From positions 2,322-66,321 of the forward strand of contig JAFPXC010000001.1 of the NCBI GenBank assembly GCA_017394805.1: a stretch of DNA of 64,000 bases. Reading direction: 5' to 3'. Positions 12,591-30,052 of the stretch are shown piece after piece. Within the stretch, counting starts at the first letter, position 1. Each line of letters starts with the position of its first letter. Below the pieces are notes generated by a model. That model saw nothing but the letters and a program-made list of their open reading frames with translations, ran no database searches and had not been told where the DNA came from. Origin of the DNA: Clostridia bacterium (lineage in GTDB: Bacteria > Bacillota > Clostridia > Christensenellales > CAG-1252). Made by a program: the position numbers and the translations under genes.

Positions 12591-12621
12591 TGTTGTTCTC
12601 TCCTTTTTTCTTTTCAGGCTC

Positions 12622-12675
12622 TTGACAAAGCCGTTTTTGCGTGGTACACTTGTTACACCGTCGCAATTGTACCAC
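12622..12675 (+). promoter_or_regulatory. Promoter with overlapping inverted repeat (candidate TetR operator)
   Basis: TTGACA (12622-12627), 17 nt, TACACT (12645-12650). The 8-bp inverted repeat gtggtaca (12641-12648) / tgtaccac (12668-12675) spans the -10 element. Confidence 0.5.
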
Positions 12676-12758
12676 GGATTACACGCATATGTCAATACCA
12701 TATCCGTCGGACTGAACAATCGTCGGGCAATTTGTAACGTCGGAAAGGGTAACTATTT

Positions 12759-13307: not shown

Positions 13308-13612
13308 AACGGCTTCCAACAGGAGCAAAAAAAAAGAATTCGAAAACTTCATAATATAAAGGAAACAAGAATCGTTAAAAAATAATGATATAATCTGTGT
13401 CATTTTTGCCCGAGAGCGTAAAAATGCAAGGAGCGTATCCTTCACAATGGAGGGTAACCACTCACCCCCCTTGCATGGATTCTATCAATATCTACTATGC
13501 AACACAAGTTTTGAGTGCGCCCGGCGATTGGGTATAGACGACGAAACGTACCATTTTGTAACAGGCGGATGGGATTAAGCGCTCGGTAGGGCTCCCACTC
13601 GCTCCGCCATAA

Positions 13613-13654
13613 GCCTTCAAGTTTGAACCATCAGACTTGAGGGCTTTTGTTTTG
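13613..13654 (+). terminator. Rho-independent terminator
   Basis: gccttcaagt (13613-13622) pairs with acttgagggc (13635-13644), followed by TTTTGTTTTG. Confidence 0.7.
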
Positions 13655-13715
13655 TCACGCATAGATGGTAAACGAAAATTTTTACGGTTAATCGGATAAA
13701 ACACGCCGAAATCGC

Positions 13716-14185
13716 TTATAGATACTTCTCCATGCATACGGCGTCCGACTCGACGTCGTAGGGCGGATGGTTGGGGCAGACCGAATAGCCGTTGCGAAGA
13801 TAAAACGCAATGGCGCGGGGGTTCCCGCCGCGGCACTCCAGTACGAGGCGGCGGTAACCTAAGGCGCGCGCCTCGTCTTCCACGGCCGCCATCTGCGCGG
13901 CGCCTACGCCACGACTGCGGGTGCGAGCGTACACGCGCTTCACTTCACCCGTTTCGTCGTCCAAAACGCGCACGCCGGCGCAACATATGGGCGTGCCACA
14001 TTCGTATCCGACGAGGAAAAACGCTTTGTTTTGCCCGAAATCTTCGGGACAAACGTGAGGGTGCCGTCGTGCCCGAGTGTGCCGATAAGCACCTCGTTCA
14101 ACTCTTGAAGAAGTGCTTTCGAATCGACGGATTCGATAGATGATTTTACGAAAGAAAGTGTCGTTTCCCCTTGCCTTATGCTCAT
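13716..14185 (-). pseudogene. GNAT family N-acetyltransferase interrupted by a 1-nt frameshift
   Basis: The N-terminal part MSIRQGETTLSFVKSS...GTLTFVP (frame of ORF 13940-14218) continues as EDFGQNKAFFLVGYECG...RSRGVGAAQM...AFYLRNGY (frame of ORF 13716-14270). The frames switch at the GGG run 14046-14048; one extra base would restore a single ORF. Confidence 0.7.
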
Positions 14186-14366
14186 AATACGCACAACTTT
14201 TTGCGGTGCGGTGCGCACCGCGATCGCTATGGATTATAGGGATTTCACGCCCGTTTGTCAAGCGTTCCACCTTGGGGGCATCGCCCGCGTCGGCCTTCTT
14301 CCGCTCACCCCGTAAAAAACGTAACTAAAGTTGTAATTCGGTATTGAAAAGCCGACGGCTACTTGT

Positions 14367-14662
14367 TATAATAGAAGCAAGTGTGCAAGCACGAGCGAAG
14401 CGAAGTATTTGCATAACGCTTGCGCCGCATTGCAACCGAACGCGGGGAGCGTAGCGACCAATCTATACGCAGTATAGATACCATTCGTAAGAATGGGCGT
14501 TCGTATGGTTGTATAATAGAAGCAAGCGTGCAAGCACGAGCGAAGCGAAGTATTTGCATAACGCTTGCGCCGCATTGCAACCGAACGCGGGGAGCGTAGC
14601 GACCAATCTATACGTAGTATAGATACCATTCGTAAGAATGGGCGTTCGTATGGTTGTATAAT
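14367..14662. repeat. Tandem direct repeat: two full 145-bp units plus the first bases of a third
   Basis: Unit starts (TATAAT) are at 14367, 14512 and 14657. The copies differ at only two positions (14382 t vs 14527 c; 14470 c vs 14615 t). Each unit contains hairpins tctatac-gNa-gtataga and ccattc-gtaa-gaatgg. Confidence 0.9.
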
Positions 14663-14721
14663 GAAAAAGTATTTTATCTGCGCGCCAACGCATACGCGCA
14701 GAAATAAGCGAGGAGAGAACT

Positions 14722-15798
14722 ATGAAATTCGTCAAAAAAGCAATCGTGGTATTATTAATCGTCGCCGTCGTCGCCGGCGTTACGGCGTGCGCCAACGGCA
14801 AAGACGCCGTCAAGTTCGATACCTGGAACGAATGTACGGCCTTGACGTCGCTCAAAGAGTACGTCAAAGCGGTGACGGACAAAAACAGCAAAGAGTATAT
14901 CCCCGTGGAAGATCGCATCGCGGTGTTCGACATGGACGGCACCTTGTGCGGCGAATTGTTCCCCGAGTATCTCGAGTATCTTCTCTTGGCCTACCGCTGC
15001 TTGGACGATCCTACCTACCAAGCGAGCGAAGACCTCGTCGAAGTCGCCACCGAGATACGCGAAGCTGGCAAGAACTACAAGACGCCCGCTATCCCCGAGT
15101 ACGACGTGCGCCACGGCAAGGCGCAAGCCAAAGCCTTCGCGGGGATGACGCCCAACGAGTTTATACAATACGTCAAGACCTTCCTGCAACAGGACGCGCA
15201 AGGATTCACGGGGTTGAAATACGCCGACTCCATCTACAAACCCATGATAGAGGTGGTGACCTACCTGCAACAAAACGACTTTACCTGCTACGTGGTCAGC
15301 GGCTCCGACCGCATGATCTGCCGCGCGGTGGCGTGCGAAGCGCTCAACCTGCCCGAAAACCAAATCATCGGCATGGACGTCACCTTGGTGGCCACCAACG
15401 AGCCGACCTATGAGAACAACGAGGGCTATCACTACAACAATCTGCACTATCAATTCAACGACGGCGGCAAGGACACCTTGGTAAGAGGCGACAGTCTGTG
15501 GATAAAGAACCTCAAGATGAACAAGGTCTTCCAAATCGCGCAGGAGATCGGCAAGCAACCCGTGCTTTCCTTCGGCAACAGCAGCGGCGACGTGAGTATG
15601 CACGAGTACACCGTCACCGACAATAAATACCGCTCGATGGCCTTTATGCTCATCGCGGACGACGCCGAAAGAGACCACGCCGACCTCACGGAGACCGCCA
15701 AACGCAAAGCGCAATGGGAAACGCGCGGCTACACCATCATCTCGATGAAAAACGACTTCAAGACCATCTACGGCGAAGGCGTTACGATGACGAAATAA
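14722..15798 (+). CDS. HAD-superfamily hydrolase, predicted lipoprotein
   Basis: Signal peptide with lipobox VTAC. HAD motifs FDMDGTL, VVSGSD and GNSSGD. GAGGAGAG RBS. Confidence 0.8.
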   Translation: MKFVKKAIVVLLIVAVVAGVTACANGKDAVKFDTWNECTALTSLKEYVKAVTDKNSKEYIPVEDRIAVFDMDGTLCGELFPEYLEYLLLAYRCLDDPTYQASEDLVEVATEIREAGKNYKTPAIPEYDVRHGKAQAKAFAGMTPNEFIQYVKTFLQQDAQGFTGLKYADSIYKPMIEVVTYLQQNDFTCYVVSGSDRMICRAVACEALNLPENQIIGMDVTLVATNEPTYENNEGYHYNNLHYQFNDGGKDTLVRGDSLWIKNLKMNKVFQIAQEIGKQPVLSFGNSSGDVSMHEYTVTDNKYRSMAFMLIADDAERDHADLTETAKRKAQWETRGYTIISMKNDFKTIYGEGVTMTK

Positions 15799-15818
15799 TC
15801 GAAAAAGAGGAAACCGAT

Positions 15819-16523
15819 ATGGAACAAAAATTGCTGATAGAAGCGAAAAACCTCGTAAAAACCTACGGCGAGGGCGAAGGCTTGACCTTTGCGTTGAACA
15901 AGGTGTCCATCAACGTGTACGAACACGACTTTTTGGTGATCTTGGGCGGCTCGGGCTCGGGCAAGTCCACCTTCCTTAATATGCTGGGCGGCATAGACAA
16001 GGTGGAATCGGGCGAAATATTGGTCAACGGACAAGACATCGTCAAATTCAACGACAAGCAGTTGACCTTGTACCGCCGCAATACGATAGGATTCGTCTAT
16101 CAGTTCTTCAACCTCATCAACGATATCACCGTCTATCAAAACGTCGTGTTGGCCCCCGGCTCGCGCAACAAAGAACGCGCCATGGCGCTCTTGGAACGCG
16201 TGGAATTGGCCGACAAAAAGGATAAATTCCCCCGTCAACTGTCGGGCGGACAGCAACAGCGCGTGGCCATCGCCCGCGCCCTCAACAAGCCCAGCGACAT
16301 ACTCCTCTGCGACGAACCCACGGGCGCATTGGACGACGTGTCGGGCAAAGCCGTCCTCAAACTGCTCGAGGACATACACAACGAAGGCAAAACCATCGTG
16401 TTGGTGACGCACACCCGCGAGATAGCTGGTATGGCCAACCGTATCATCACGATGAAAAACGGGCAAGTGGTCAAAGAGGAATACAACGACCACGTCGTCA
16501 AAGCGGAAGAGGTGATTTGGTAA
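15819..16523 (+). CDS. ABC transporter ATP-binding protein (MacB/LolD type)
   Basis: GGSGSGKST (Walker A), LSGGQQQRVAIARAL (signature), LLCDEPTGALD (Walker B). Start moved to ATG 15819 after AAGAGG. Confidence 0.9.
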   Translation: MEQKLLIEAKNLVKTYGEGEGLTFALNKVSINVYEHDFLVILGGSGSGKSTFLNMLGGIDKVESGEILVNGQDIVKFNDKQLTLYRRNTIGFVYQFFNLINDITVYQNVVLAPGSRNKERAMALLERVELADKKDKFPRQLSGGQQQRVAIARALNKPSDILLCDEPTGALDDVSGKAVLKLLEDIHNEGKTIVLVTHTREIAGMANRIITMKNGQVVKEEYNDHVVKAEEVIW

Positions 16524-16524
16524 T

Positions 16525-19002
16525 ATGATCGGCACGATGCTCAAGCCCTTTTTCAAGAAGTTCATAGGGCTGTTCATTTCTATGGTCTTCGTTTCGATGC
16601 TGTCCATCGGTCTCTTGACGGCGTTCGCCTCCACCTTGCGCAATTTGGGCGAGACCTTCCGCACCTATTTATCGGAATATGAGGACGTCAACGTCGTGGC
16701 CGATATCGGGTTCACTTCCCTCACCAAGCTGGCTGACTTGTCGCAAGTGGACGGCGTGGAAACCGTGGAGTACCGCCTGACCATGACCGCCAATATGAAA
16801 ACGGCGGACGACAAGCACACGTACACGATGAAGCTGTTTACGTTCAAAGACGACGGCACGTCCCGCTTCAATCGCTTCGTGCTCAAAACGGCCGCCGAAA
16901 AGAGCGCGGACAAAGTCAACGTCTCCCTCGTGCGCAAATTCGCCGACAACAACGGCTTCAAGCCCGGCGATTCGGTCAAGATAGGGTTCTACGACACCTT
17001 CCTCGACTGCAACGTCTACGAGATCATCGAGACGCCCGAGGCCATTCTCCCCCGCGTCAACGCCCTCGTATGGTCGGACAACACCGACTTCGGCTACGTC
17101 TACGTCGCCGAGAGCGAATTGGACAAATTGATCGCCGAAGCGGCCGTCGCCATTGAAAACAAGATAGAAGCGAACGACGCGTTCCGCGCCGTTTACGAAA
17201 AAGCGGTCGAAGCCGCGGGCGGCACCATTCCCGACCTCGTCGATACCTACGTCCTGGGCATGGACTACACGCGCGTATTCGCCAACCAGATCCTCATCAA
17301 GGGCGAAGACGGACTGCCCGAAGAAGTGGTCGTCTACAACGTCAACAAGTATCTGAAAACCCCCGAAAAAGAGGTAAAGGTCGATTCCGTCACCGAAAAT
17401 CACAAGCAAGCCTATTACGCCTACGTCGAGAACTCCATCAAGACCATGCGCGTGGCGGCGGTATTTTTGCCCGTGTTCTTCTTCTCGGTGACGATGATCA
17501 TCATCAGCCTGTTTATCAACCAGATCATCAAGGCGATGACGCCGCAAATAGGCATTATGATGTCCATCGGCGCGGGCAAATTGGATATTATATCCATCTT
17601 CCAGGTGTTCACGCTCATTATGTCCCTTTGCGCGGGCGCGCTGGGTACGGGCGTCGCCATAGGCCTCAATCGTATGCTGGCCTCCGCCCTTATCAACGTC
17701 TATTCCATTCCGACCATTCCCTACGGCGTCAATCCCCTCATCGCGGTGTTGTCGGTGTTGGCGTTGATGGTATTCGCGCAAGGCGCCACGGCATTCTCCT
17801 GCCGTAGTATTTTCCGCATCACGCCCAAAGACGCCACCATCTCCAACGAGGCCAAGCGCAAGCGTATGTCGCCCAAATTGGAGGCCGCCATCGACCGCGC
17901 GCCTATGATTATAAGACTCGGCGTCAATTCCATCGCGCAAAACCCCAAGCGCTTTTTGGTGTCCGCTTTCGCCATCCTCGCGTCGTTCGTCATTATCCTT
18001 ATGTCCCTCTTCTTCTACGACGCAAAGATGAACCTATTGCATCAGACGGTGGACGAGAGATGGTCTTTCGACGCGCAGGTCTATATGGCGTCCGTGGCCA
18101 CCGAGGAAGATATAGCCGCCGTGCGCAGCCAGCCTTCGGTGAAACAATTTTTGGATTGCTACTGCACCTACGCCAAGGTCGAAAACCTGTACGACTCCAA
18201 AAAGCACGCGTCCATCGCTTGCGTGGGGTTTGACGAGGATCCCAACAACGATCTCATTGTCATTCCCGACGAAAAAGGCAAAGGTGATATGTCCTTGCCC
18301 TCGTCGGGCGTAGTCTTGCCGCAACCCGTCGCCAAGGCGATAGGCGTCAAGAAGGGCGATTGGGTGAAGATGAACGGCGTGCCCTACCGTGTGTCCGCCA
18401 TCTCCTTCCAATACGGGCACACCATCGCCTTTATGACCAAGGCGGAACTCGTGCGTATGGATATGCAATATATCTCCACGTATATCCTCAATCTCAACGA
18501 CGACGCGGCTTTCCTTACCTATATGCAGGAGCACAATCCCGCCACCGTCACCGTGTTCTCGAAAAATCTCCGCAAGGATATGCGCGGTATGTTCGGCGCC
18601 ATCGACATCTTCATCTATCTGCTTATCGGATTCTCCCTCGCGATGGGCTTCATCATTTTGTGCATCATGGGGCAGAACGCCTTGATGGAGCAAAAACGGC
18701 AAATATCCGTCTTCCGCCTCATCGGCTTCACGGTGCTGGACGTGTCCAACCTGTGGACGTTGCAGGGCGTGGCGCAACTGGTATTGTCGTCCATCTTCGC
18801 CATTCCCGCGGGCGTGGGCGCGTCCGCCGCTCTGTACGCGATGGTCAATTCGTCCTCTCAGATATTCCCCCTCACCGTCAAGGCGACGACCGTTCTTGCC
18901 GCCTTTGCCTTCGTGTTCGTCATCATAGTCGCCAGCCACTTGTTGTCCATGCTGTCCATCAAGCGGTGGAACCTGGCCGACAACACGCGAAGCCGCGAAT
19001 GA
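16525..19002 (+). CDS. ABC transporter permease, FtsX/MacB type (duplicated FtsX module)
   Basis: 825 aa. The N-terminal TM, large extracytoplasmic domain and 3-TM cluster occur twice. ATG lies 1 nt after the ATPase stop. Confidence 0.85.
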   Translation: MIGTMLKPFFKKFIGLFISMVFVSMLSIGLLTAFASTLRNLGETFRTYLSEYEDVNVVADIGFTSLTKLADLSQVDGVETVEYRLTMTANMKTADDKHTYTMKLFTFKDDGTSRFNRFVLKTAAEKSADKVNVSLVRKFADNNGFKPGDSVKIGFYDTFLDCNVYEIIETPEAILPRVNALVWSDNTDFGYVYVAESELDKLIAEAAVAIENKIEANDAFRAVYEKAVEAAGGTIPDLVDTYVLGMDYTRVFANQILIKGEDGLPEEVVVYNVNKYLKTPEKEVKVDSVTENHKQAYYAYVENSIKTMRVAAVFLPVFFFSVTMIIISLFINQIIKAMTPQIGIMMSIGAGKLDIISIFQVFTLIMSLCAGALGTGVAIGLNRMLASALINVYSIPTIPYGVNPLIAVLSVLALMVFAQGATAFSCRSIFRITPKDATISNEAKRKRMSPKLEAAIDRAPMIIRLGVNSIAQNPKRFLVSAFAILASFVIILMSLFFYDAKMNLLHQTVDERWSFDAQVYMASVATEEDIAAVRSQPSVKQFLDCYCTYAKVENLYDSKKHASIACVGFDEDPNNDLIVIPDEKGKGDMSLPSSGVVLPQPVAKAIGVKKGDWVKMNGVPYRVSAISFQYGHTIAFMTKAELVRMDMQYISTYILNLNDDAAFLTYMQEHNPATVTVFSKNLRKDMRGMFGAIDIFIYLLIGFSLAMGFIILCIMGQNALMEQKRQISVFRLIGFTVLDVSNLWTLQGVAQLVLSSIFAIPAGVGASAALYAMVNSSSQIFPLTVKATTVLAAFAFVFVIIVASHLLSMLSIKRWNLADNTRSRE

Positions 19003-19083
19003 TCGAGGATACGCGCGGCGCGGTTTTGCGGCAAAGTCGCCCGTAGGCGCGCCGCTCGACCGACAGATAAGGAGCGAACGGAT

Positions 19084-19674
19084 ATGGTAAAGGTGGTATT
19101 GGCAAAGACTCGTGGTCTGACGTGGGCAAAAGCCCGCGCCTTGCCCTTCGTCCTCGCAGAGGACGTAGCCGAGGCCGACCGCTACCGAAGCCCCGACGAC
19201 AAGGTGCTGCACCTCGTATCGGCCTTTCTCAAACGGAAATACGTGGGGACGTGGACGGTTTCGCCCGAGGGCAAGCCCCTTTCCCTCGCCGTTTGCTTCA
19301 ACGTGTCGCACACCGAATGGCTGGTGGCTTTGGCGCTCGCCCCCTTTGACGTGGGCGTAGACGTGGAGCGCGTCCGCACGGCCGACGCGGATTTGCGCAA
19401 CTATATCGCCGCCTCCGACGAGCGGGCGCACGTCCACTCGGACGAGGACTTTTTCCGTCTGTGGACGGCCAAAGAGAGCCTGGTCAAAGCCGAAGGCACG
19501 GGCTTTGACGTCAAACCCGACGAAGTGCCCGCCTTGCCCCTCGAAGGGTGCAAGACCTACAAAAATCATCGCTATTATTCCCGCCAAACCGAGGTGGGCG
19601 ACTGCGTGCTATCCGTCACGTGCCGCACCGACCGACCGTTTGAGTGGGCCATTGAAAAGGAGAATATACTATGA
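19084..19674 (+). CDS. 4'-phosphopantetheinyl transferase (Sfp type)
   Basis: FNVSHT, VGVDVERV and FRLWTAKESLVKAEGTG motifs. The stop overlaps the NRPS start (ATGA at 19671-19674). Confidence 0.85.
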   Translation: MVKVVLAKTRGLTWAKARALPFVLAEDVAEADRYRSPDDKVLHLVSAFLKRKYVGTWTVSPEGKPLSLAVCFNVSHTEWLVALALAPFDVGVDVERVRTADADLRNYIAASDERAHVHSDEDFFRLWTAKESLVKAEGTGFDVKPDEVPALPLEGCKTYKNHRYYSRQTEVGDCVLSVTCRTDRPFEWAIEKENIL

Positions 19675-22600
19675 GCCAATATTATCCGCTGTCCAAAACC
19701 GAAGAAGGCATCTACGTATCCTGTCTTACGCCTACCGACGCCTACAACCTCACCAACGTACTGCGGTTGGGCAAATCCTTGGACGTTCCTCGTTTCACCG
19801 CCGCGGTGGCCGCGGTATTCGACGCGCACCCCTATCTGTTCACCGTGTTGTTCGAGGGAGAGGACGGCGGCATATACAAAAAACTCCAACCCGTACCCAT
19901 AGAGTTGCCCGTCGTCGAGGTGGACGAACTCGACGTACAGTCGCCCCCCTTCGAGATGCTGGGGCGGCATTTGTTCCGCTTGGCTTTGTACCGCGTGGCG
20001 GGCGAATACGTCTTCGTCTTCGACTTCCATCATATCATTTTCGACGGCACTTCGGCCAAATTGTTCATCGACCAAGTGGGCGCCGTCTATCGCGGCGAAT
20101 CCATCGAAAAAGAGACCTACAGCGCCAACGAATTCGGCCTTGACGAGCAAAAACGCCTGCAAACGGACGACTACCGCAAGGCAAAAGATTTCTTCGAGAA
20201 GGCCGTCAAAGACCCCGAGACCGATTCCGCGCTCATCGAGGACAAGTCGGAGGGCACGATCCTTCACGGCACGTTCCATCAGGACCTCACCGTCCTCAAC
20301 GCGGACGTAAAAGACCTGACCAAACGGCTGAAAATCAAAACGTCGGCATTCTTCTTGGCGACTTTCGGCTATTTGTTGTCCAAAATCAATATGGACGACA
20401 AGGCGCTCTTCCTCACCGTCAACAACGGCCGCGACGAGATGACGCGCCATTCGTTGGGTATGTTCGTCAAGACCTTTCCCTTCTATCTGGAAAACAAAGA
20501 AACGGTGGCCGAATACCTCTCGGCCGCCAACGACTATCTGGTGGGCGCGACCGCCAGCCTACTGTATCCCTTCTCGGACGCGGTCAAGGATTTGGGCGTG
20601 CCCGACGGCGTGATGTTCGCCTATCAAGGGGACAGTTTCTACAAGACCGAGTGGGAGGGGCGTGACGCCTTCGTGTCCCTTCTCGACCGCAAGGACGGCA
20701 AGGACAAGTTGAGCGTGGAAGTATATCGTGAAAACGGGTGCTTCCTGGTGTGGGTAGAGTACCGCGCCGACCTCTACGAAGAGGACACCGTTCGGCACCT
20801 CATCCGCCTCTACGACGTGGCGCTCAAAGAGTTTTTGCGAAAAGCCGCGCTTGCCGACGTCGATCTCGTCGACGAAAAGGAAAAGGCGCTGTTGGATTCT
20901 TTCAACCGCGCGGACCTCTCCTATATAGACGCAAACCGCACGGTATTGGACGATTTCCGCGATATGGTAAAGAAATATCCCGACCACCCCGCCGTCGTGT
21001 TCCGCGACAAGCGCTACACCTATCGTGACGTGGATCGCTTGTCCGACAATATAGCCGCCTACCTCGCGGCCAAAGGCGTGGGCAAAGAGGACGTGGTGTC
21101 CGTACTCATCAACAAGAGCGAATATATCGTCATCGCCTCGTTGGGCGTGCTCAAATCGGGCGCGGCCTACCAGCCCCTCGATCCGTCTTACCCCGTGGAG
21201 CGATTGGCGTTCATGGTCAAGGACGTCGCCGCCAAGGCCCTCATCAAGGACCGTGACCTCGATTTGTTGCAAGACTACGACGGCCCCATTCTCTACACGG
21301 ACGAAGTAGACGCGTTGCCCGACCACGCGGCGCCTCGGGTGGACGTGCGGCCCCGAGATTTGTTCATTATGCTGTATACGTCGGGTTCGACGGGCGTGCC
21401 GAAAGGCGTTATGCTCGAGCACGGCAACCTCAACACGTTCGCCACCTATCACGCGCGGCGGTTCGGCGTAGACCATACGGCCAGAGTAGCCGCCTACGCA
21501 TCGTACGGGTTCGACGCGGATATGCTCGACCTCTATCCCACCCTCACGCACGGCGGGTGCGTATACGTCATACCCAACGAACTCAGGCTGGACCTCATCA
21601 AGTTGGGGGACTACTTCAACCAAAACGGCGTCACGCACGCCATGCTCACCACGCAGGTGGGGCGGCAATTCATCGAAATGATAGACGCGCCCACGTTGCG
21701 TTTCCTCTTGGTCGGCGGCGAAAAGTTGGTGCCCGTCGCACCGCCCAAATACACGTTGGCCAACGGCTACGGTCCCACCGAGGGCACGGTATATTGCTCG
21801 GCCCAAGTGGTGGATCGCACGTACTATCGCGTGCCTATCGGCAAAGCCAACGAAACCTACAAGACCTACGTCCTCGACAAAAACGGCCGTCGCCTGCCCA
21901 CCTTGGCGCAAGGCGAATTGTGCATAGCCGGCCCGCAGGTGGCGAGGGGCTATCTCAACCGTGAGGAAGAGAACAAAAAAGCCTTTCTCCTTAATCCCTT
22001 CGACGAAGACGCCGCCTTTGCGCGGCTCTATCGCACGGGCGACGTGGTGCGCTATCTCGCGGACGGCACGTTGGACTTCATCGGTCGCAAGGACGGTCAG
22101 GTGAAGATACGCGGCTTCCGCGTGGAACTCTCGGAAGTGGAAAAGGTCATTCGGGAATACGCGGGCGTCAAAGACGCCACCGTCAAGGACTTCGTGGACC
22201 CCGCGGGCGTCAAGTATTTGTGCGCCTACGTCGTGTCGAACGACGAGATAGACGTGGACGACCTCAACGCCTTTATCGCGTCCAAAAAGCCCCCCTATAT
22301 GGTGCCCGCCTACACGATGCAGATAGACGCCATTCCCCTCAACCAAAACCAAAAAGTCAACAAACGCGCCTTGCCGCAGCCCCAACTCAAACAGCGCGAA
22401 AAGGTAGCGCCCGCGGGTGAGGACGAGCAAGCGGTGTACGACATTCTCGCGGGCATTCTGGGCACGCGGGACTTCGGCGTTACCACGGACGTCTACGAGG
22501 CGGGCCTCACCAGCGTGTCCTCTATCCGTTTCGCCATTCTCTTGTCCAAACGATTCGGCAAAGAGGTGGGCAACGCCGACTTCCGCGCCTGCCCCACCGT

Positions 22601-25600
22601 GCGGGCGTTGACCGCGCGGCTGGCGGCCAAAGAGGAAGTGAAGACCTACGAAATACGGGCGGAATACCCCCTCTCCAAGTTGCAGGAAGGCATTTTCGTG
22701 GAATGTACCACCCACCCCGATACCACCGTCTACAATATCCCCGTTTTGATCAAACTCCACCCCTCGGTGGACGTAGAACGCCTGGCCGAGGCCGTAGAGA
22801 GGGTCGTGGACGCGCACCCCTATCTCAAAATGCGCCTGCACGTCCGTGACGACGGGGACGTGGTGGCCACCCGCGACGACGCGCGCAAGATAGCGGTCGG
22901 TCGCATCACGGTTGCCGAGGGCGAAACGAGCGGTCTCGTCAAGCCCTTCGACCTGCAAAAAGACGATCTCTTCCGCGCCGCCATCGTCACGGACGGCAAG
23001 CAGAATTATCTGTTCGTGGACGCGCACCATATCGTATTCGACGGCGAATCGCTGGTCGTCTTTATGCGCGAAGTGGAAGAAGCCTATCAAGGTCAAAGCG
23101 TCCCCGCCGAAACCTACACGGGGTTCGAAGTGGCCTTGGACGAAGAGGAAAGAGTAAAGAGCGACGACTATCGTCGGGCCAAAGCCTATTACGAGGATCT
23201 TTTGGGCGCGGTGGACACCGAATGTATGCCCATTCGCGACCGCGACGAAGGCGTCGACCGAGGGGAAGATTTCTTGGTGGCCGCCGTCATAGACAAAGCC
23301 CCTCTCGCCGCCTTCCTCAAAGATAGCGGCACCACCGTCAACGCCCTTTGGAACGCCGCGTTCGGCTACGCCTTGGCCAAGTTTCTGGCGCGGGAAGACT
23401 GCGTGTATACCACCGTCTACAACGGCCGTAGTGACAGTCGTCTGGCGGACGCCATCGGTATGTACGTGCACACATTGCCCGTGGTATTCCGCATGACGGC
23501 GGGGCAAAGCGCCAAAGACGCCGTGCGCAACGTGGCCAAACTGCTCGCAGACGACATGGCCAACGACGTCTATCCCTTTGCCGAAATATCCCGCAACTTC
23601 GGCGTCAAAGCCAACGTGATGTTCGTGTACGAGGGCAATATCGGCACGGGGCTGACGGTCGGCGGACAACCAGCCGAAAGCGTGATGCTCAAATTGGACG
23701 CGCTCAAAGCAGACCTCTCCGTCTTCGTGTACGAAACGGGAAACGGCTTCCGCTTAGATTGCGAATACAACGCGCGCTACTACGAAGAATGGAGCATTCG
23801 CTCCTTGCTGCAAAGCACCGTGGCGGCGCTCAACGCGATGATTTCGGGCGTCAAAATAGACGAAATATCCCTGCTTTCGCCCCAAGAAAAGGCCCGTCTG
23901 GACGCTACCTTCGTGGCGCACGAAACCGAGGATACCGACGTCGTTACCCTCTTCAGACGCGCCGCCGCGGCGTACCCCGAGCGCAACGCCGTCATCTTCC
24001 GCGACAAGCGCCTCACCTATCGGCAATTGGACGAGATATCCGACCGCGTGGCCGCCTACGTCCAAAGCCGTGGCGTGGGCAAAGAAGACCGCGTGTCCAT
24101 TCTCGTCCCGAGAGGGGAATATATGGTGATAGCGGCCTTGGGCGTGCTCAAAGCGGGCGCGGCCTACGAGCCGTTGGATCCCTCCTATCCCCCCGAGCGG
24201 CTCAACTTTATGGTGCAAAACGCCAAGGCAAAATTGGTCATCGCGGATAGCGCCCTCATCGGGTTGCTGTCCGAATACGAGGGCGACCGCCTTTTCATCG
24301 AGGACGTTCCCTCTCTGCCGCAGGCGAAACCCGTCGATCCCTCGCTCAAAGGGAATAATATGTTCATCATCCTGTACACCTCGGGCACGACGGGCACGCC
24401 CAAGGGCGTGATGCTCGAGCATCACAACCTCGTCAACTTCTGCACTTGGTATAGAGCGCATTACGATCTCACCCCCGAATCGGTGGTGGGCGCTTACGCG
24501 AGTTTCGGCTTCGACGCGGATATGATGGATTTGTACCCCGCGCTCACGACGGGTGCGGCGGTCTACGTCATTCCCGAAGATATGCGCCTTGACCTCAACG
24601 CCCTCAACGAAGCGTTCAAGGAGAACGGGGTGTCGCACGTCTTTATGACCACCCAGATGGGGCGTATGTTCGCCGAAAACATTGCGGGCGAAAGCCTTGC
24701 GCACCTGTCGGTGGGCGGCGAAACGCTCGCTCCCGTCAATCCGCCCAAAGGGTTCGCGCTTTGGAACGGATACGGCCCCACCGAATGCACCATCTTCTCC
24801 ACGATATGGAAGATAGATCGCCTCTACTACCGCAATCCCATCGGCGCGGCCTTGTGGAACTACAAACTGTACGTCGTGGGCAAAGCGGGCGACGAATTGC
24901 CCGTAGGCGCGTTGGGCGAGTTGTGGATAGCGGGCGCGGGCGTAGGCAGAGGCTACCTCGACCTACCCGAGCAGACCAAAAAGGTCTTTATTGCCAACCC
25001 CTTCGACAGCACCTCAGGCTTCGAGCGCGCGTATCGCACGGGCGACGTGGTGCGCCGCCTCGCGGACGGTAGCATCGACTTCGTAGGGCGCAACGACGGG
25101 CAGGTGAAGATACGCGGTTTCCGCATCGAATTGGCCGAGGTTGAAGGCGTTATACGCGAGTACCCCGGCGTCAAAAACGTGACCGTGCAAGCCTTCGAGG
25201 ACAAGGCCTTCGGCGGCAAGTTCCTCGCGGCCTACGTCGTGGCGGACGACAAATTGGACTTCGGCGCCATCGGCGAGTTCATCAAGAGCAAAAAGCCCCC
25301 CTATATGGTGCCTGCGGCCTTTATGCAGTTGGACGAGATACCCCTCAACCAAAACCAAAAAGTCAACAAACGCGCTTTGCCCGCCCCCGTGCGCAACGCG
25401 GCGGATACGAGCGTCAAAGACGAGCCGACCACCGCGCTCGAACGCGAGATATGCAAGGTGTTCGCCAACATATTGGGACTTGAAAAAGTCGGCGCCACCG
25501 ACGATTTCTTCGACATCGGCGGCACTTCGATAAGCGCCGCGAAGGTGTCTATGTACGCCGCGGGCAAGAGTTATCCCGTGGCCTACAAGGACATTTTCGA

Positions 25601-26861
25601 CAATCCCACCGCCCGCGCTTTGGCCAAACATATCACCGAGGCGAGCGGCCAAACGGCAGAAACGCAAGCGGTGCAAGAGGAAGAAAAGAGCGAAGAGGCG
25701 CTCCGCCACAACGCGGTGACCTACGTCAACGAGATTGCGTCCGTGCGCCCCCTCGGCAGAACGCTCCTCGCGGGCGGCACGGGCTTCCTCGGCTCTCACA
25801 TACTCAAAGCCCTCTTGGACGACGGGGTGGACACGGTGGTATTGAGCCGTAGCAGCAAGACCTTGGACGCCAAAACGCGCTTGTCGGCCATGATGATGTA
25901 CTACTTCGACGAAACGGCGGACGACCTCGTGGACAATCGCCTCACCGTGATCGACGGCGACATCACCAACGCCGACCTCTTGGACAAACTGAAAGACGAG
26001 CAGATAGACACCATCATCAACGCGGCCGCCTGCGTCAAGCACTTCGCCGCGGACGACATTATCGAGCGCATCAACGTAGGCGGGGTGGAGAACCTTATCA
26101 AGGTGGCTTTGGCGCACGACGCCAGGCTCATTCAAATCTCCACTTTGTCCGTCGCGGGCGAGAATGTGGGCAACAAGTTCCCCCCGACCTACCGCATGAA
26201 AGAGACGCAACTCTACTTCGGGCAGGACATCTCCAACAAGTACGTCAATTCCAAATTCAAGGCCGAGCAAGCCATCGTAGAAGCCATCGAGCGCGAGGGG
26301 TTGGACGCCAAGATGATCCGCGTAGGCAACTTGATGAGCCGACTGTCGGACGGCGAGTTCCAGGTCAACGCCATCACCAACGGCTTTATGCGCAACCTCA
26401 AAGGCTACGCCACTCTCAAGAAGTTCCCCGTCAACAGTATGGACGCCGTCATCGACTTCACCCCCATCGACGAAGTGGCCAAGGCCGTGTTGCTACTGTC
26501 CACCACGGGCAAAGAGTTCACCACGTTCCACGCCGCCAACTCGCATCAGGTGCAGATGGGCGACGTCATCTACGCGATGAACGAGATGGGCTTCGGCATC
26601 GACGTGGTGCCGGACGAGGAATTTGTGCGCGCCCTCAAAGAAATGATGGCCGACGAAAAGAAGAATATGCTGGTGTCCGCTCTCATCAATTACGCCTCTT
26701 CGGACGGCAAGGCGCACGCCTTCATTCAATCGGACAACGAGTTTTCCAACAAAGCGCTCTATCATCTGGGCTACAAGTGGCCCATTACGGACGAGCGTTA
26801 TCTCGAAAACGCCATTCGGGCTTTGGCCGAACTCAACTTCTTCATTCGCACGGATATCTAA
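19671..26861 (+). CDS. Bimodular non-ribosomal peptide synthetase, C-A-T-C-A-T-R (terminal thioester reductase)
   Basis: C1 HHIIFDG (nt 20028-20048). A1 LYTSGSTGVPKG (21372-21407), YRTGD and GRKDGQVKIRGFRVEL. T1 AGLTSVS. C2 HHIVFDGES. A2 LYTSGTTGTPKG. T2 FFDIGGTSISA. R domain GGTGFLGSH plus YVNSK (SDR YxxxK). Confidence 0.95.
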   Translation: MSQYYPLSKTEEGIYVSCLTPTDAYNLTNVLRLGKSLDVPRFTAAVAAVFDAHPYLFTVLFEGEDGGIYKKLQPVPIELPVVEVDELDVQSPPFEMLGRHLFRLALYRVAGEYVFVFDFHHIIFDGTSAKLFIDQVGAVYRGESIEKETYSANEFGLDEQKRLQTDDYRKAKDFFEKAVKDPETDSALIEDKSEGTILHGTFHQDLTVLNADVKDLTKRLKIKTSAFFLATFGYLLSKINMDDKALFLTVNNGRDEMTRHSLGMFVKTFPFYLENKETVAEYLSAANDYLVGATASLLYPFSDAVKDLGVPDGVMFAYQGDSFYKTEWEGRDAFVSLLDRKDGKDKLSVEVYRENGCFLVWVEYRADLYEEDTVRHLIRLYDVALKEFLRKAALADVDLVDEKEKALLDSFNRADLSYIDANRTVLDDFRDMVKKYPDHPAVVFRDKRYTYRDVDRLSDNIAAYLAAKGVGKEDVVSVLINKSEYIVIASLGVLKSGAAYQPLDPSYPVERLAFMVKDVAAKALIKDRDLDLLQDYDGPILYTDEVDALPDHAAPRVDVRPRDLFIMLYTSGSTGVPKGVMLEHGNLNTFATYHARRFGVDHTARVAAYASYGFDADMLDLYPTLTHGGCVYVIPNELRLDLIKLGDYFNQNGVTHAMLTTQVGRQFIEMIDAPTLRFLLVGGEKLVPVAPPKYTLANGYGPTEGTVYCSAQVVDRTYYRVPIGKANETYKTYVLDKNGRRLPTLAQGELCIAGPQVARGYLNREEENKKAFLLNPFDEDAAFARLYRTGDVVRYLADGTLDFIGRKDGQVKIRGFRVELSEVEKVIREYAGVKDATVKDFVDPAGVKYLCAYVVSNDEIDVDDLNAFIASKKPPYMVPAYTMQIDAIPLNQNQKVNKRALPQPQLKQREKVAPAGEDEQAVYDILAGILGTRDFGVTTDVYEAGLTSVSSIRFAILLSKRFGKEVGNADFRACPTVRALTARLAAKEEVKTYEIRAEYPLSKLQEGIFVECTTHPDTTVYNIPVLIKLHPSVDVERLAEAVERVVDAHPYLKMRLHVRDDGDVVATRDDARKIAVGRITVAEGETSGLVKPFDLQKDDLFRAAIVTDGKQNYLFVDAHHIVFDGESLVVFMREVEEAYQGQSVPAETYTGFEVALDEEERVKSDDYRRAKAYYEDLLGAVDTECMPIRDRDEGVDRGEDFLVAAVIDKAPLAAFLKDSGTTVNALWNAAFGYALAKFLAREDCVYTTVYNGRSDSRLADAIGMYVHTLPVVFRMTAGQSAKDAVRNVAKLLADDMANDVYPFAEISRNFGVKANVMFVYEGNIGTGLTVGGQPAESVMLKLDALKADLSVFVYETGNGFRLDCEYNARYYEEWSIRSLLQSTVAALNAMISGVKIDEISLLSPQEKARLDATFVAHETEDTDVVTLFRRAAAAYPERNAVIFRDKRLTYRQLDEISDRVAAYVQSRGVGKEDRVSILVPRGEYMVIAALGVLKAGAAYEPLDPSYPPERLNFMVQNAKAKLVIADSALIGLLSEYEGDRLFIEDVPSLPQAKPVDPSLKGNNMFIILYTSGTTGTPKGVMLEHHNLVNFCTWYRAHYDLTPESVVGAYASFGFDADMMDLYPALTTGAAVYVIPEDMRLDLNALNEAFKENGVSHVFMTTQMGRMFAENIAGESLAHLSVGGETLAPVNPPKGFALWNGYGPTECTIFSTIWKIDRLYYRNPIGAALWNYKLYVVGKAGDELPVGALGELWIAGAGVGRGYLDLPEQTKKVFIANPFDSTSGFERAYRTGDVVRRLADGSIDFVGRNDGQVKIRGFRIELAEVEGVIREYPGVKNVTVQAFEDKAFGGKFLAAYVVADDKLDFGAIGEFIKSKKPPYMVPAAFMQLDEIPLNQNQKVNKRALPAPVRNAADTSVKDEPTTALEREICKVFANILGLEKVGATDDFFDIGGTSISAAKVSMYAAGKSYPVAYKDIFDNPTARALAKHITEASGQTAETQAVQEEEKSEEALRHNAVTYVNEIASVRPLGRTLLAGGTGFLGSHILKALLDDGVDTVVLSRSSKTLDAKTRLSAMMMYYFDETADDLVDNRLTVIDGDITNADLLDKLKDEQIDTIINAAACVKHFAADDIIERINVGGVENLIKVALAHDARLIQISTLSVAGENVGNKFPPTYRMKETQLYFGQDISNKYVNSKFKAEQAIVEAIEREGLDAKMIRVGNLMSRLSDGEFQVNAITNGFMRNLKGYATLKKFPVNSMDAVIDFTPIDEVAKAVLLLSTTGKEFTTFHAANSHQVQMGDVIYAMNEMGFGIDVVPDEEFVRALKEMMADEKKNMLVSALINYASSDGKAHAFIQSDNEFSNKALYHLGYKWPITDERYLENAIRALAELNFFIRTDI

Positions 26862-26912
26862 CGATAATCTCACTTTTGCAATCGCAAAAACAACTCTTAT
26901 AGGAGAAAGAAA

Positions 26913-27209
26913 ATGGAAGTCAACATTGAACACAACGAAGCAATGGTCATTGCCGTCAAAGGCAGATTGGACACGGTTACGTCCGCGCAGTTGGACGCCG
27001 CCATCAAGGCCGAAACCATCACGGAAAACTTGGTCGTCTTCGACTTCACCGACGTGGAGTACATTTCGTCGGCGGGGCTTCGCGTACTATTGGGGCTCAA
27101 ACGCACCTTGGACGACGAAGGCAAAGCGCTCGAGGTACACAATATCAACGCGGTGGTACGAGAGATATTCTCGGTGACCGGTTTTATCAACGCGCTGACC
27201 GTCAAGTAA
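26913..27209 (+). CDS. STAS-domain anti-sigma-factor antagonist (SpoIIAA/RsbV-like)
   Basis: 98 aa. VVFDFTDVEYISSAGLRVLL contains the conserved phosphorylatable Ser context. Confidence 0.85.
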   Translation: MEVNIEHNEAMVIAVKGRLDTVTSAQLDAAIKAETITENLVVFDFTDVEYISSAGLRVLLGLKRTLDDEGKALEVHNINAVVREIFSVTGFINALTVK

Positions 27210-27218
27210 CGCCCTCTT

Positions 27219-29345
27219 ATGAAAATAAGCCTGCGTCTGAAGGTCGTGTTTATGACCGTTATTTTGTCGATGGCACTCATCGGCGCGTCCGTTCTCATCG
27301 CGTCGCTGTTTTTCACCGAGCGCACGCAAAAAGACGCCGATAACGATTGCGCCATGGCCGCCGCCAATATGGCGAAGCGCCTCGACGAATCGTATGGGGA
27401 TTTTATCGTGAATTACGCCGCTTCCATGCGCCAAATCTACGAGGATAACTACGAAGATTTGGTGTATCACGAACAGCACGGATTCGCCTCCCGTGAGGAA
27501 GAAGCGGAGTATTACAAGAGCCTTACCGCGCCTTTGTTCCCCGCTTCGACCGGCTTCGGCATGAGTTACGCGCAGTCCGAGTTCCGCAACAACTACAACT
27601 TCGTTATGCAGGAATTGTTGCTGGTCTCCAACAATTTCAACACCGAGGGCGGCTATGTCTATCTCTACGACAGCCAAAACGATTATATCGTCTTTATGAT
27701 GGATTGCACGGACGACGATTCGCCGTTGTACGCCTTCCCCGCCAGCATTCAGCGGCCCTCCCCACAATGGAAATCGGCCGTAGGCGACGCGAATACCGTG
27801 GTTACGTACCTCAAAAAATTGAACGGCGTGCAGTATTGCTACGGGACGTACCCGCTCTTGGACGAAGACGAGGGCACGGTCGTCGCCTACGTCGGATTCA
27901 ACTACGATATGGCCAAATTGCAGACCGCCCAACGCGAATTTATCACCACGATCACCATCATTATGGTTATCGTGATGGCGGTCATCACCCTCGTGTATTT
28001 GTTGTTGGCGGAGTATTTCCTCATCAAAAACATTCGCAAACTGTCCCGCTCTACCGTGGCGTTCTCGGACAACCTCGCGGAAGGCAAGCGGTTGACCTAC
28101 GTCGATAGCGGCGTCAAGTCCCGCGACGAGGTGGGTATGCTCTCCGCGCAGTTTGGCGTCATGCAGCACAAACTCATCGAATACGTGGACACCATCGCCC
28201 AAAAGACGGCGGAAGAGCACCGTCGCGGCGCGGAGTTGTCCATAGCCGCCGAGATACAGCAAGAAGAATTGCCGCCCTCCGCGTATTCGGACGAGGCGGT
28301 ATCCGTTCGCGCCAGTTTCACCGCCGCCAAAGAGGTAGGCGGCGACTTCTACGATTATTTCTACGTGGACGAAGGACGAGTGGCGGTGGTGATAGCCGAC
28401 GTCACGGGCAAAGGGATACCCGCCGCCTTGTTTATGATGAAAGCGAAGAGCATCATCAAGAGCGAGGTCAAGGCGACCGAAGACCTAGTCAGAGCGATGG
28501 CCAAAGCCAACGACGCCATTCTCGAAAACAACCGCGCGGGGCTGTTCGTCACGGCCTTCGTGGGCGTCGTAGACGTGCGTACGCGTCGTATGACGTGCGT
28601 CAGCGCGGGGCACGAAAAGCCCTACCTCGTGGGCGAGGACGGCGCGGTCGAACGGTTGAACGTGCACGCCAACTTCGTGCTGGGCGGCATCGCGGGCTTC
28701 CCCTATGCGGCGGACGAGGTCGACCTCGGCGATAGGCGGCTCTTCCTCTTCACGGACGGGCTGAACGAGTCCATCGACGGCAACGAAGAGGAGTTCGGCT
28801 ATCAACGCGTCGAAGACGCGCTCCGCATTTCCGCCCATCTCGGCCAAGACCAAGTGCTGTCGGCGATGCAAGACGCACTCGGCGCTTTCGTGGGCGACAA
28901 AGAGCCGTTCGACGACGTGACGATGCTGTCGTTTGCGCTCAAAGACGCCGCCTTGCACTTACGATTCGACGATCCCGACTACGACGTTATCGAGCAAACG
29001 ACGGAAGCGGTCAACGCCGCTTTCCCGCAACTCGAAAGGGAGGTCTTGGTCAAAGCGGGCGTTATTATCGACGAGATACTCAACAATCTGGTTTCCTACG
29101 AAAAGAAAGAGGGGTTCGTCGTCACCGTCGACGCCGCCGTCAAGGCGGACGGTTTGACCCTCGTTTTCTCTTCCAACGGCGACGCGTTCAACCCTCTCCA
29201 AACGAAAGGAAAGCCCCTTACCTCGGACGCCGCCGAAGCGACTCTCGGCGGTTGGGGCATCGCCATCACGCGAAGTCTGTCTTCGGGCGTTTCCTACGCC
29301 CGCGTAGACGATCGCAACGTGTTAGAGGTGACGTTCGCGCTCTGA
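27219..29345 (+). CDS. Membrane sensor - HAMP - PP2C (SpoIIE/RsbU-type) phosphatase fused to a C-terminal RsbW/SpoIIAB-like kinase domain
   Basis: N-terminal TM, periplasmic-type domain and second TM. PP2C motifs EVGGDFYDYF, VVIADVTGKGIPAALFM, FLFTDGLNES and DDVTML. C-terminal IIDEILNNLVSY and GGWGIAITRSL resemble HATPase_c_2 N and G2 boxes. Confidence 0.85.
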   Translation: MKISLRLKVVFMTVILSMALIGASVLIASLFFTERTQKDADNDCAMAAANMAKRLDESYGDFIVNYAASMRQIYEDNYEDLVYHEQHGFASREEEAEYYKSLTAPLFPASTGFGMSYAQSEFRNNYNFVMQELLLVSNNFNTEGGYVYLYDSQNDYIVFMMDCTDDDSPLYAFPASIQRPSPQWKSAVGDANTVVTYLKKLNGVQYCYGTYPLLDEDEGTVVAYVGFNYDMAKLQTAQREFITTITIIMVIVMAVITLVYLLLAEYFLIKNIRKLSRSTVAFSDNLAEGKRLTYVDSGVKSRDEVGMLSAQFGVMQHKLIEYVDTIAQKTAEEHRRGAELSIAAEIQQEELPPSAYSDEAVSVRASFTAAKEVGGDFYDYFYVDEGRVAVVIADVTGKGIPAALFMMKAKSIIKSEVKATEDLVRAMAKANDAILENNRAGLFVTAFVGVVDVRTRRMTCVSAGHEKPYLVGEDGAVERLNVHANFVLGGIAGFPYAADEVDLGDRRLFLFTDGLNESIDGNEEEFGYQRVEDALRISAHLGQDQVLSAMQDALGAFVGDKEPFDDVTMLSFALKDAALHLRFDDPDYDVIEQTTEAVNAAFPQLEREVLVKAGVIIDEILNNLVSYEKKEGFVVTVDAAVKADGLTLVFSSNGDAFNPLQTKGKPLTSDAAEATLGGWGIAITRSLSSGVSYARVDDRNVLEVTFAL

Positions 29346-29387
29346 TATGCGCGCCGACAAGACGCGCACGCCGTAGCACGACCGCAA

Positions 29388-30001: not shown

Positions 30002-30052
30002 CCCATTCCGTCCCCGTTAAACATGACTCCATTTCCCTTTGCCTTCGCTGTT

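Follow-up and report, generated by a model that had tools for sequence, protein, structure and literature searches.

The stretch of DNA considered here, called the window throughout, comprises 64,000 nucleotides from a Clostridia bacterium (Christensenellales, CAG-1252; assembly GCA_017394805.1, contig JAFPXC010000001.1, positions 2,322 to 66,321 of the forward strand) and contains the gene of a two-module nonribosomal peptide synthetase (NRPS) that ends in a reductase domain. This gene (19671-26861) is a single open reading frame (ORF) of 2396 amino acids (aa), for which Pfam matches and motifs give the order C-A-T-C-A-T-R, with C for condensation, A for adenylation, T for carrier and R for reductase domains. 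It belongs to a string on the plus strand at 14.3-29.4 kb, which was counted as eight co-directional genes and of which seven are itemised here; all features below are on the plus strand unless marked otherwise. Directly upstream of the NRPS gene lies that of an Sfp/AusB-like 4'-phosphopantetheinyl transferase (PPTase; 19084-19674, 196 aa, Pfam ACPS). Two genes follow downstream. One encodes a STAS or anti-sigma-factor-antagonist-like protein (26913-27209, 98 aa, Pfam STAS E=2e-14), and the other a membrane sensor that carries a PP2C phosphatase domain of the SpoIIE type and an RsbW-like HATPase_c_2 domain (27219-29345, 708 aa, Pfam SpoIIE E=2.8e-39 and HATPase_c_2 E=1.5e-9). Together, the PPTase, the NRPS, the STAS protein and the sensor form a four-gene core cassette, which in the window occupies the end of the string. 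It stands behind the genes of a HAD-family lipoprotein (14722-15798, 358 aa, Pfam HAD/Hydrolase with 27-29 bits), an ATP-binding cassette (ABC) ATPase of the MacB/LolD/FtsE type (15819-16523, 234 aa, Pfam ABC_tran E=4.7e-33), and a tandem double-FtsX permease (16525-19002, 825 aa, two Pfam FtsX domains and eight predicted membrane helices). The gene set does not owe its appearance to chance, as the 7.2-kb ORF and domain E-values to 1e-151 demonstrate.

Along the string the seven itemised genes are separated by 20, 1, 81, -4, 51, and 9 nt, in this order. The negative value reflects the overlap of the TGA of the PPTase gene with the ATG of the NRPS gene ('ctATGAgcc', preceded by the ribosome-binding site GGAG), so that the translational coupling of both genes that a preliminary description of this DNA had noted is borne out. 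The best promoter-like site upstream of the string lies at 14344-14372 (TTGAAA-17-TATAAT with TG before; 11 of 12 matches to the consensus, and defined by this consensus match only), and no comparable site is present on the plus strand of the 81-nt gap ahead of the PPTase gene. A hairpin followed by a T-run at 29392-29415, recognized by pattern match only, is the sole convincing structure of this kind downstream of the string and likely marks the end of the transcription unit. Terminator-like matches inside the string are weak and fall within coding sequence; the pattern scan found no strong internal terminator. Judged by these sequence patterns, co-transcription of the string from 14722 to 29345 is plausible.

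NRPS genes related to that of the window are numerous. In a scan limited to one genome per species, at least 573 related loci were found in genome contigs, mostly metagenome-assembled genomes (MAGs) from rumen and gut, and the best 80 of these loci (39-54% identity over the full length of the NRPS) were used for neighborhood counts. These 80 originate from MAGs of Clostridia, Erysipelotrichaceae/Acholeplasmatales, and Bacteroidales and from some Blautia, Ruminococcus, and mouse or pig gut isolates; the Blautia and Ruminococcus isolate genes share 40-41% identity with the NRPS of the window over the full length. The protein database contains 2134 relatives at E<=1e-50, which comprise two-, three-, and four-module versions, and reductase-type Pfam domains occur in all but one of the 120 relatives listed. 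A copy with 99% identity was found only in metagenome contigs of the European Nucleotide Archive (ENA), and the next relatives, at 60-64% identity, stem from ruminant-gut metagenomes. Membership of the NRPS in the reductase-terminated gut and rumen family, as previously proposed, is thus well founded on 40-64% identity over approximately 100% of the length and on a shared architecture. The synthetase as such is an ordinary addition to a very large and already described family; 5,346 NRPS clusters have been reported from 8,160 rumen genomes (PMC8241843).

The gene neighborhoods redraw the boundary of the cluster. For this comparison, ORFs were called in the 80 loci and clustered to find recurrent neighbors, and homologs of the HAD protein, the permease, and the PPTase were sought with tblastn. 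A set of four close relatives (61-64% NRPS identity) and two sibling contigs (L081 and L082, 99% identity) was inspected as well. All four close relatives possess the order PPTase-NRPS-STAS-PP2C or the same four genes reordered, and their flanks differ wholly from those of the window and contain no adjacent transporter. The PPTase gene adjoins the NRPS gene in at least 38 of the 80 loci according to tblastn (31 by ORF clustering) and in all four close relatives. The preliminary description had delimited the cluster at 14722-26861, and both of these limits are wrong, because the three genes at the upstream end are not companions of the NRPS in the family, and the STAS and sensor genes beyond 26861 were missed. 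By gene neighborhood, the family-defined cluster would span 19084-29345, and the upstream trio appears to be a lineage-specific addition whose functional link is suggested by adjacency alone. The main value of the analysis is therefore corrective. It moves the cluster boundary, shows the transporter and the lipoprotein to be lineage-specific, and identifies the STAS/sensor cassette as the real companion of the NRPS.

Domains and specificity codes of the synthetase

The predicted order of domains was borne out by the sequence of Pfam matches (Condensation twice, AMP-binding twice with E=2.8e-151, AMP-binding_C twice, PP-binding twice, and NAD_binding_4/Epimerase at residues 2033-2273) and by regular-expression searches, in which all core motifs were found intact. 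The first condensation domain, C1 (19671-20915), stands in the starter position at the N-terminus and contains HHIIFDG at residue 120. It is followed by A1 (20916-22385), the carrier T1 (22416-22640; Pfam PP-binding at residues 921-984), the C2 domain that would form the peptide bond (22641-23915; HHIVFDG at residue 1119, Pfam Condensation at residues 997-1410), A2 (23916-25391), the carrier T2 (25428-25655), and the terminal thioester reductase (25656-26861; NAD_binding_4 E=8e-32). A1 shares 57% identity with A2, and C1 32% with C2. In A1 and A2, respectively, the motifs TSGSTGVPKG and TSGTTGTPKG begin at residues 570 and 1570, NGYGPTE at 698 and 1699, YRTGD at 787 and 1788, and GRxDGQVKIRG at 805 and 1806. 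C2 strongly matches solved C domains in the multi-domain structures of LgrA, SrfA-C, and TycC. The terminal domain was correctly described as an SDR-type reductase (SDR, short-chain dehydrogenase/reductase) with a glycine motif and YxxxK, as these are represented by GGTGFLG at residue 2035 and YVNSK at residue 2191, and both are kept in 55 of 56 two-module relatives.

The carrier sites read GLTSV at residue 945 in T1 (Ser948, nt 22512-22514) and GGTSI at residue 1950 in T2 (Ser1953, nt 25527-25529). The first of them, noted before as an atypical GLTSVS site, is not unusual in this family. T1 reads G-(L/I)-(T/S/N)-S in all 56 aligned relatives, and the serine is always kept, whereas the T2 motif is GG(T/S/N)S in all of these relatives except for a single aberrant sequence without a reductase. 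By alignment, the GLTS site of T1 is a signature of the family with an intact serine and not a defect. Both serines would be converted to their holo forms by the PPTase, as its adjacency and ATGA coupling to the NRPS suggest.

Extraction of the specificity codes, which the preliminary description had left to later work, gave DALMLGGVYK for A1 and DAMFSGGIFK for A2. The codes were read by motif anchoring and then checked by alignment to a fragment of GrsA, for which DAWTIAAIC is obtained at the canonical positions. The two pockets are hydrophobic and carry no charge. The A1 code is presumably nearest to codes of the Leu/Ile type, and A2 was given no assignment. When 56 two-module relatives are aligned (residues 614-897 and 1614-1899 of the window NRPS), the two positions differ in their variability: among 55 sequences there are 14 distinct A2 codes vs. 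40 distinct A1 codes, with entropies of 2.98 and 5.14 bits, respectively. DAMFSGGIFK is the commonest A2 code of the family (15 of 56), and with DAQFDGGITK and DAMFAGGIFK it accounts for 38 of the 56 relatives. Two A2 classes, DAMFSGGIFK/DAMFAGGIFK and DAQFDGGITK, thus dominate. The acidic pocket residue in DAQFDGGITK may point to an aldehyde residue of basic or polar character in those relatives. If the products were inhibitors aimed at one class of proteases, a fixed aldehyde-bearing residue next to a diversified neighbor would be expected, and the conserved A2 and variable A1 codes would fit such inhibitors with a fixed P1 and a diversified P2 residue.

The STAS and sensor-phosphatase genes

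The small protein encoded downstream of the NRPS exceeds the cut-off of the NCBIfam model ant_ant_sig (58.5 vs. 53.45 bits) and aligns with solved anti-sigma antagonists. Its candidate phospho-serine, Ser53 (nt 27069-27071), is located in YISSAGL(R), a motif of the S-x-G-L type, and is at least 90% conserved in 50 homologs. According to hydropathy and Pfam, the sensor consists of a first membrane helix, an outside domain of approximately 217 aa, a second helix, a long coiled linker, the PP2C domain, and the RsbW-like domain. The outside domain is highly variable among homologs. The metal-binding residues of the PP2C domain (D376, D379, D394, D513, D565, and D566) are invariant in 69 homologs, and so are the N-box (E619 and N623) and the G2 motif (GGxG, 677-680) of the RsbW-like domain. 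An AlphaFold (AF2) model of the sensor, based on these 69 sequences, has a mean pLDDT of 87.7. Its top matches are the RsbU-RsbW didomain of Rv1364c (3KE6) and the PP2C domain of SiaA (6K4E), the PP2C fold also matching RssB, RsbX, and SpoIIE, and the fold search returned PP2C and RsbW matches only. The best NCBIfam match of the sensor is SiaA as well, although a weak one. In the model, the outside domain with its long helix and subsequent five-stranded sheet gives the impression of a Cache/PAS-like fold, and this is to be taken as an impression and not as a result.

Both genes recur with the NRPS. The STAS gene (approximately 100 aa) and the SpoIIE-HATPase_c_2 gene (approximately 700 aa) are each present in 49 of the 80 loci, the window included, and stand-alone HATPase_c_2 proteins are encoded in nine. 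Where at least 4 kb of sequence is available on both sides of the NRPS, 38 of 42 loci contain at least one partner-switch gene, and these loci belong to Clostridia, Bacilli, and Bacteroidales. In the Bacteroidales loci, the NRPS comes after the STAS and PP2C genes, which are found alongside an Alginate_exp-like porin or an SNF symporter. A further component occurs in 43 of the 80 loci, where a MATE exporter is fused C-terminally to an RsbW-like HATPase_c_2 domain (approximately 587 aa; for example L001 7310-9073, L059 13789-15561, and L023 8192-9940). This fusion physically ties export to partner-switch components, and no description of it was found in the searchable literature.

The same association has been reported from an archaeon. 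In the rumen methanogen Methanobrevibacter ruminantium M1, mru0068 encodes a C-A-T-C-A-T-R synthetase of two modules, the first of which includes a C domain (Leahy et al., 2010; PMC2812497). Its terminal domain is called a thioesterase in the text and a thioester reductase in the legend of Figure S8 of that paper, and its neighbors are the same gene set as in the present family, for which roles in sensing, regulation, and export were suggested (PMC2812497). Besides the archaeal host, the mru0068 cluster differs from the window in that the latter lacks the MatE gene. A STAS/PP2C cassette beside an NRPS was thus noted in 2010 for this methanogen, and no later study of it was found in the searchable literature.

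Clostridia often contain STAS and SpoIIE genes, and the pair might merely neighbor the NRPS and serve an ordinary sigma-factor partner switch that is unrelated to it. A similar pair is in fact located beside ABC and FtsX genes at a locus without an NRPS (L090, described below). We consider this coincidence very unlikely in view of the association in 38 of the 42 well-flanked loci with conserved adjacency and order, which moreover outlasts a complete turnover of the flanks in the close relatives and extends to a methanogenic archaeon. It is also at odds with two features of the neighborhoods. No sigma-factor family was found among the conserved neighbors within 10 kb in the 80 loci, although a distant sigma factor is possible, and the RsbW-like domain is fused to the MATE exporter of the cluster in 43 loci. 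An output other than a sigma factor is favored because of the archaeal occurrence, the lack of a conserved nearby sigma factor, and the fusion of RsbW-like domains to the exporter. A neighboring sigma factor is thus an unlikely target of the switch. By analogy with SypE/SypA or SiaABC, an output by protein-protein contact on export or synthesis is the more likely hypothesis.

The closest known systems of this type are SypE/SypA of Vibrio fischeri, SiaA/B/C of Pseudomonas aeruginosa, and Rv1364c of Mycobacterium tuberculosis, which, like the window, combine a single-domain STAS protein with a conserved serine, a PP2C domain, and an RsbW-like domain. SypE joins both of the latter domains on one polypeptide, and these systems have targets other than sigma factors. 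The combination of PP2C and RsbW-like domains on one polypeptide is also shared by Rv1364c and the sensor of the window. However, the order of the parts differs, as the sensor region and the linker of the window protein are followed by PP2C and then by the RsbW-like domain, and the input is a two-helix membrane module with a variable outside domain. The putative switch of the window is further distinguished by a G1-box Asp that is not conserved and by its linkage to the NRPS and, in relatives, to the MATE-RsbW-like fusion.

A different regulatory pair recurs beside the three-module NRPS in Lachnospiraceae loci (for example L038, L040, L046, and L080). It consists of a Response_reg regulator and a GHKL membrane kinase with HATPase_c_5, and judged by these domain types it is suspected to be Agr/LytTR-like.

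Predicted product and its proposed control

Because no other NRPS gene exists in the 64 kb that could feed C1, a starter role of this domain is the natural reading, as had been proposed. Neither an upstream carrier nor a partner NRPS gene is present in the window, and the conserved cassette of the four close relatives likewise contains no other NRPS gene. C1 extends from residue 1, so that no domain precedes it, and its HHxxxDG motif is kept in 53 of the 56 aligned relatives. At the opposite end of the protein, the closest solved structure for the T2-R region is the carrier-reductase (PCP-R) structure of Mru_0351 (E=1.3e-87). Against solved relatives, the reductase scores 241 bits with this structure (6VTJ), 132 with the R domain of AusA, 63 with MxaA, and 34 with the R domain of M. 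tuberculosis Nrp. It is thus closer to the AusA domain than to alcohol-forming MxaA or to Nrp. AusA releases a dipeptide aldehyde (PMC8210680).

These features suggest the following route. A1 would load a hydrophobic, probably aliphatic amino acid and A2 a second hydrophobic residue, as their pocket codes indicate. C1, by its position, would N-acylate the first residue with an acyl-CoA or acyl carrier protein (acyl-ACP) thioester from primary metabolism, and C2 would then join the dipeptide. The terminal reductase, by homology, would use NAD(P)H to free the product as an aldehyde. The predicted product thus belongs to the N-acyl dipeptide aldehydes, which are known inhibitors of cysteine and serine proteases. 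According to secondary literature, the gut reductase-NRPS family makes dipeptide aldehydes, which form pyrazinones by cyclisation where their amine is free. The same literature describes N-acylated gut dipeptide aldehydes as stable protease inhibitors (of cathepsins) and ruminopeptin as an N-acylated Leu-Glu aldehyde. Cyclisation to a pyrazinone requires a free amine, and with an N-acylated amine it would therefore not take place. The preliminary description had offered the aldehyde and the pyrazinone side by side, and these two outcomes are not both open, as acylation by an active starter C domain blocks the pyrazinone. On sequence grounds, the NRPS is likely an N-acyl dipeptide aldehyde synthetase, probably under a phospho-switch of the partner-switching type.

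Several findings weigh against this interpretation. C1 is divergent, as it matches the nearest solved C domain with E=1e-10 and shares approximately 30% identity with all C domains of the family; at this uniform level of approximately 30%, typing by solved structures and by best matches in multi-module relatives was uninformative. The cluster encodes neither an acyl-activating enzyme nor an acyl carrier protein. Neither of the A-domain codes matches a canonical code that could be named with confidence, the sequence cannot surely separate two-electron from four-electron reductases, and the product chemistry is wholly derived from homology. With regard to control, the MatE-HATPase_c_2 gene is absent from the whole 64-kb window and from the four closest relatives. 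Furthermore, the position of the G1-box Asp in the RsbW-like domain is occupied by Ser652, and of the 69 homologs 28 have S, 23 have N, and 13 have D there. As the Asp is missing, the RsbW-like domain may not be a kinase.

The divergence of C1 also bears on the alternative that the product is released in another form, either as an alcohol after four-electron reduction or as a free dipeptide aldehyde that yields a pyrazinone, with C1 being structural or inactive. The motifs do not tell which outcome the reductase produces. Moreover, many members of the family lack a first C domain: approximately 68 of the 120 relatives listed start with a C domain, approximately 45 start with A-T, and pyrazinones have been reported as isolated end products of the family (secondary literature). 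Nevertheless, such a release is improbable here, since the conservation of HHxxxDG in C1 and in nearly all aligned relatives argues for selection on catalysis, and since the reductase is much nearer to that of AusA than to MxaA or Nrp.

With the N-acyl dipeptide aldehyde as the preferred product, the synthetase shares its general type with the aureusimine/phevalin system AusA/AusB of Staphylococcus aureus, which also has two modules and reductive dipeptide-aldehyde release. AusA has the order A-T-C-A-T-R without a starter C domain, and its free-amine product cyclises to a pyrazinone. The aus operon is not known to contain a STAS/PP2C pair. The NRPS and the PPTase of the window are not orthologs of AusA and AusB. 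Although these are their best NCBIfam models, the scores stay far under the equivalog cut-offs (1035 vs. 2500 bits for AusA, and 42.7 vs. 225 bits for AusB).

Closer in habitat are the reductase-terminated NRPS clusters of human gut Clostridia, reportedly described by Guo et al. in 2017 (Cell 168:517), and the rup cluster of Ruminococcus bromii, which Schneider and Balskus are said to have linked to ruminopeptin in 2018. Short assembly lines that end in a thioester reductase, a dedicated PPTase, and an origin from gut anaerobes characterize these clusters and the window alike, a likeness drawn from their description and from homologs in gut isolates. The window differs from them by the lack of a MATE exporter, by the ABC/FtsX and HAD lipoprotein genes upstream, and by codes that lie outside the assignable ones. 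Furthermore, the nearest relatives of its NRPS come from ruminant-gut metagenomes, with 64% identity as the best value beyond the 99% siblings.

As for the control of synthesis, the sensor might read an outside cue and set the phosphorylation of Ser53 of the STAS protein via its PP2C domain and possibly via the kinase-like domain. The STAS protein might then act through protein-protein contact on synthesis or export. In its full form, this model can be offered as a tentative proposal, somewhat doubtful as it stands. A cluster-borne phospho-switch that is independent of sigma factors and travels with the NRPS family would gate the making or export of the peptide aldehyde post-translationally upon an outside signal, with the STAS protein docking on the RsbW-like domain (mostly the MATE-fused one) or on the synthetase. 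Products of the family are hard to obtain from cultures (secondary literature); the STAS/sensor cassette may explain this difficulty and offers a concrete switch. If true, the phospho-switch would be a new mode of control for a non-ribosomal assembly line and would offer a means to wake silent gut clusters.

Upstream genes and other features of the window

In the HAD protein, a signal helix spans residues 7-25, and a lipobox (V-T-A-C23) and the catalytic motif DMDGT are present as well; no NCBIfam model matches this protein. The ABC ATPase gene starts with the ATG at 15819, which is preceded by a ribosome-binding site, and the sibling contigs encode the same 234-aa product. Its best NCBIfam models are the ATPase part of MacB, LolD, DarD, and FtsE, all with scores under the cut-offs. 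By hydropathy, the permease consists of two MacB-like units of 1+3 helices with outside loops of approximately 280 and 200 aa. The term MacB-type exporter, which had been applied to these genes, holds at the level of the superfamily; the ATPase is, however, unfused and the permease is a tandem FtsX duplication. Likewise, an exporter-like gene pair does lie upstream of the NRPS as described, but it is not co-conserved with the NRPS in the family.

The HAD and ABC/FtsX genes could be dedicated parts of the pathway, the former for tailoring or immunity and the latter for export, in one unit that extends over 14722-26861. We judge this rather unlikely. Location on the same strand, the short gaps (20, 1, and 81 nt), and the absence of promoter-like or strong terminator-like sites between the permease and the PPTase gene speak in its favor, and so does the intact block in the two 99% siblings, whose flanks differ. 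These siblings are, however, the only contigs in which HAD-ABC-FtsX is kept ahead of the PPTase gene. A permease homolog occurs in none of the 80 related NRPS loci and a HAD homolog near the NRPS in one (both tblastn), and all four relatives at 61-64% identity lack both, so that the HAD lipoprotein cannot be upheld as a cluster member. The single HAD homolog is encoded approximately 5 kb upstream of the NRPS of L060 (52% identity) and would fit a dedicated role, although an acyl-dipeptide aldehyde pathway contains no obvious substrate for a phosphatase.

The case for the transporter is similarly divided. Since the window lacks the MATE exporter of the family, another exporter would be needed, and from its adjacency the ABC/FtsX pair may assist in the clearance or export of a lipophilic product. 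Many MAGs of Clostridia and Bacilli encode permease homologs with 42-59% identity. In all six genomic contexts examined, however, these are paired with an ABC ATPase among unrelated, often housekeeping neighbors, and neither an NRPS nor a HAD gene is nearby. Transporters of the MacB type act on substrates at the outer face and do not export from the cytoplasm, which also counts against a dedicated exporter.

In one of these contexts (L090, 5283-11457), a fusion of STAS with an APH domain (an aminoglycoside-phosphotransferase-like kinase) and a SpoIIE-HATPase_c_2 protein are encoded directly upstream of the ABC and FtsX genes. The permease of this locus is 46% identical to that of the window, and no NRPS is nearby. 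A general link between ABC/FtsX pairs and partner switches was considered and dropped, as partner-switch genes lie directly upstream in one of the six contexts and a SpoIIE gene is nearby in one, which is too few.

Between the promoter-like site and the HAD gene lies a tandem repeat (14367-14662) of 2.0 copies of a 145-bp unit that are 98% identical, and every unit terminates in TATAAT. The copy number is two in L082 and three in L081, and the repeat is absent from all other loci. The unit has a stable predicted RNA fold (z = -3.6). A scan of 13000-31000 against Rfam gave no family match, also not for the repeat, apart from one match at chance level. Synteny of L081 with the window ends exactly at 14363, where L081 contains PcfJ/PcfK genes of a conjugative element.

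Farther upstream, the window encodes a small alarmone synthetase with a RelA/SpoT domain (10660-11460, minus strand), a DUF1269 protein (11961-12719, minus strand), a TetR regulator (12759-13307, plus strand), and a GNAT acetyltransferase (13716-14186, minus strand), none of which recurs near the NRPS in related loci. They are preceded by a low-GC island at approximately 2000-10400, where GC is 31-37% vs. 52-61% elsewhere. It contains DNA methyltransferase genes at 2527-3651 (D12 class) and 5605-6885 (N6_N4/D12), the gene of a 744-aa protein (6888-9122) that combines HATPase_c_3 with HATPase_c, and that of a 428-aa protein without Pfam match. This island probably is an acquired restriction-modification or defence island.

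Downstream of the gene string, a type II-A CRISPR-Cas locus at 30005-36347 represents an insertion, as both 99% sibling contigs join 30004 directly to 36348. Its array (30053-30550) has a period of 66 nt and the repeat GTTTTAGTACCATTTTGAATCACATACGGCTAAAAC, and is followed by csn2 (30627-31244) and cas9 (31637-35827). The adaptation module seems to be degraded. The sole Cas1 match is a 145-aa ORF at 31196-31633, which covers positions 3-123 of the 283 in the hidden Markov model (HMM), and no cas2 was seen in the locus.

Two giant ORFs are located toward the end of the window. The first (45623-55696, 3357 aa) contains five YDG domains, a CBM26 starch-binding module, and MBG_2, and the second (56116-62622, 2168 aa) has no Pfam match. 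As their region (45623-62622) yields surface-protein domains or no Pfam match, a second synthetase that would feed C1 was ruled out there. Both ORFs probably encode cell-surface proteins.

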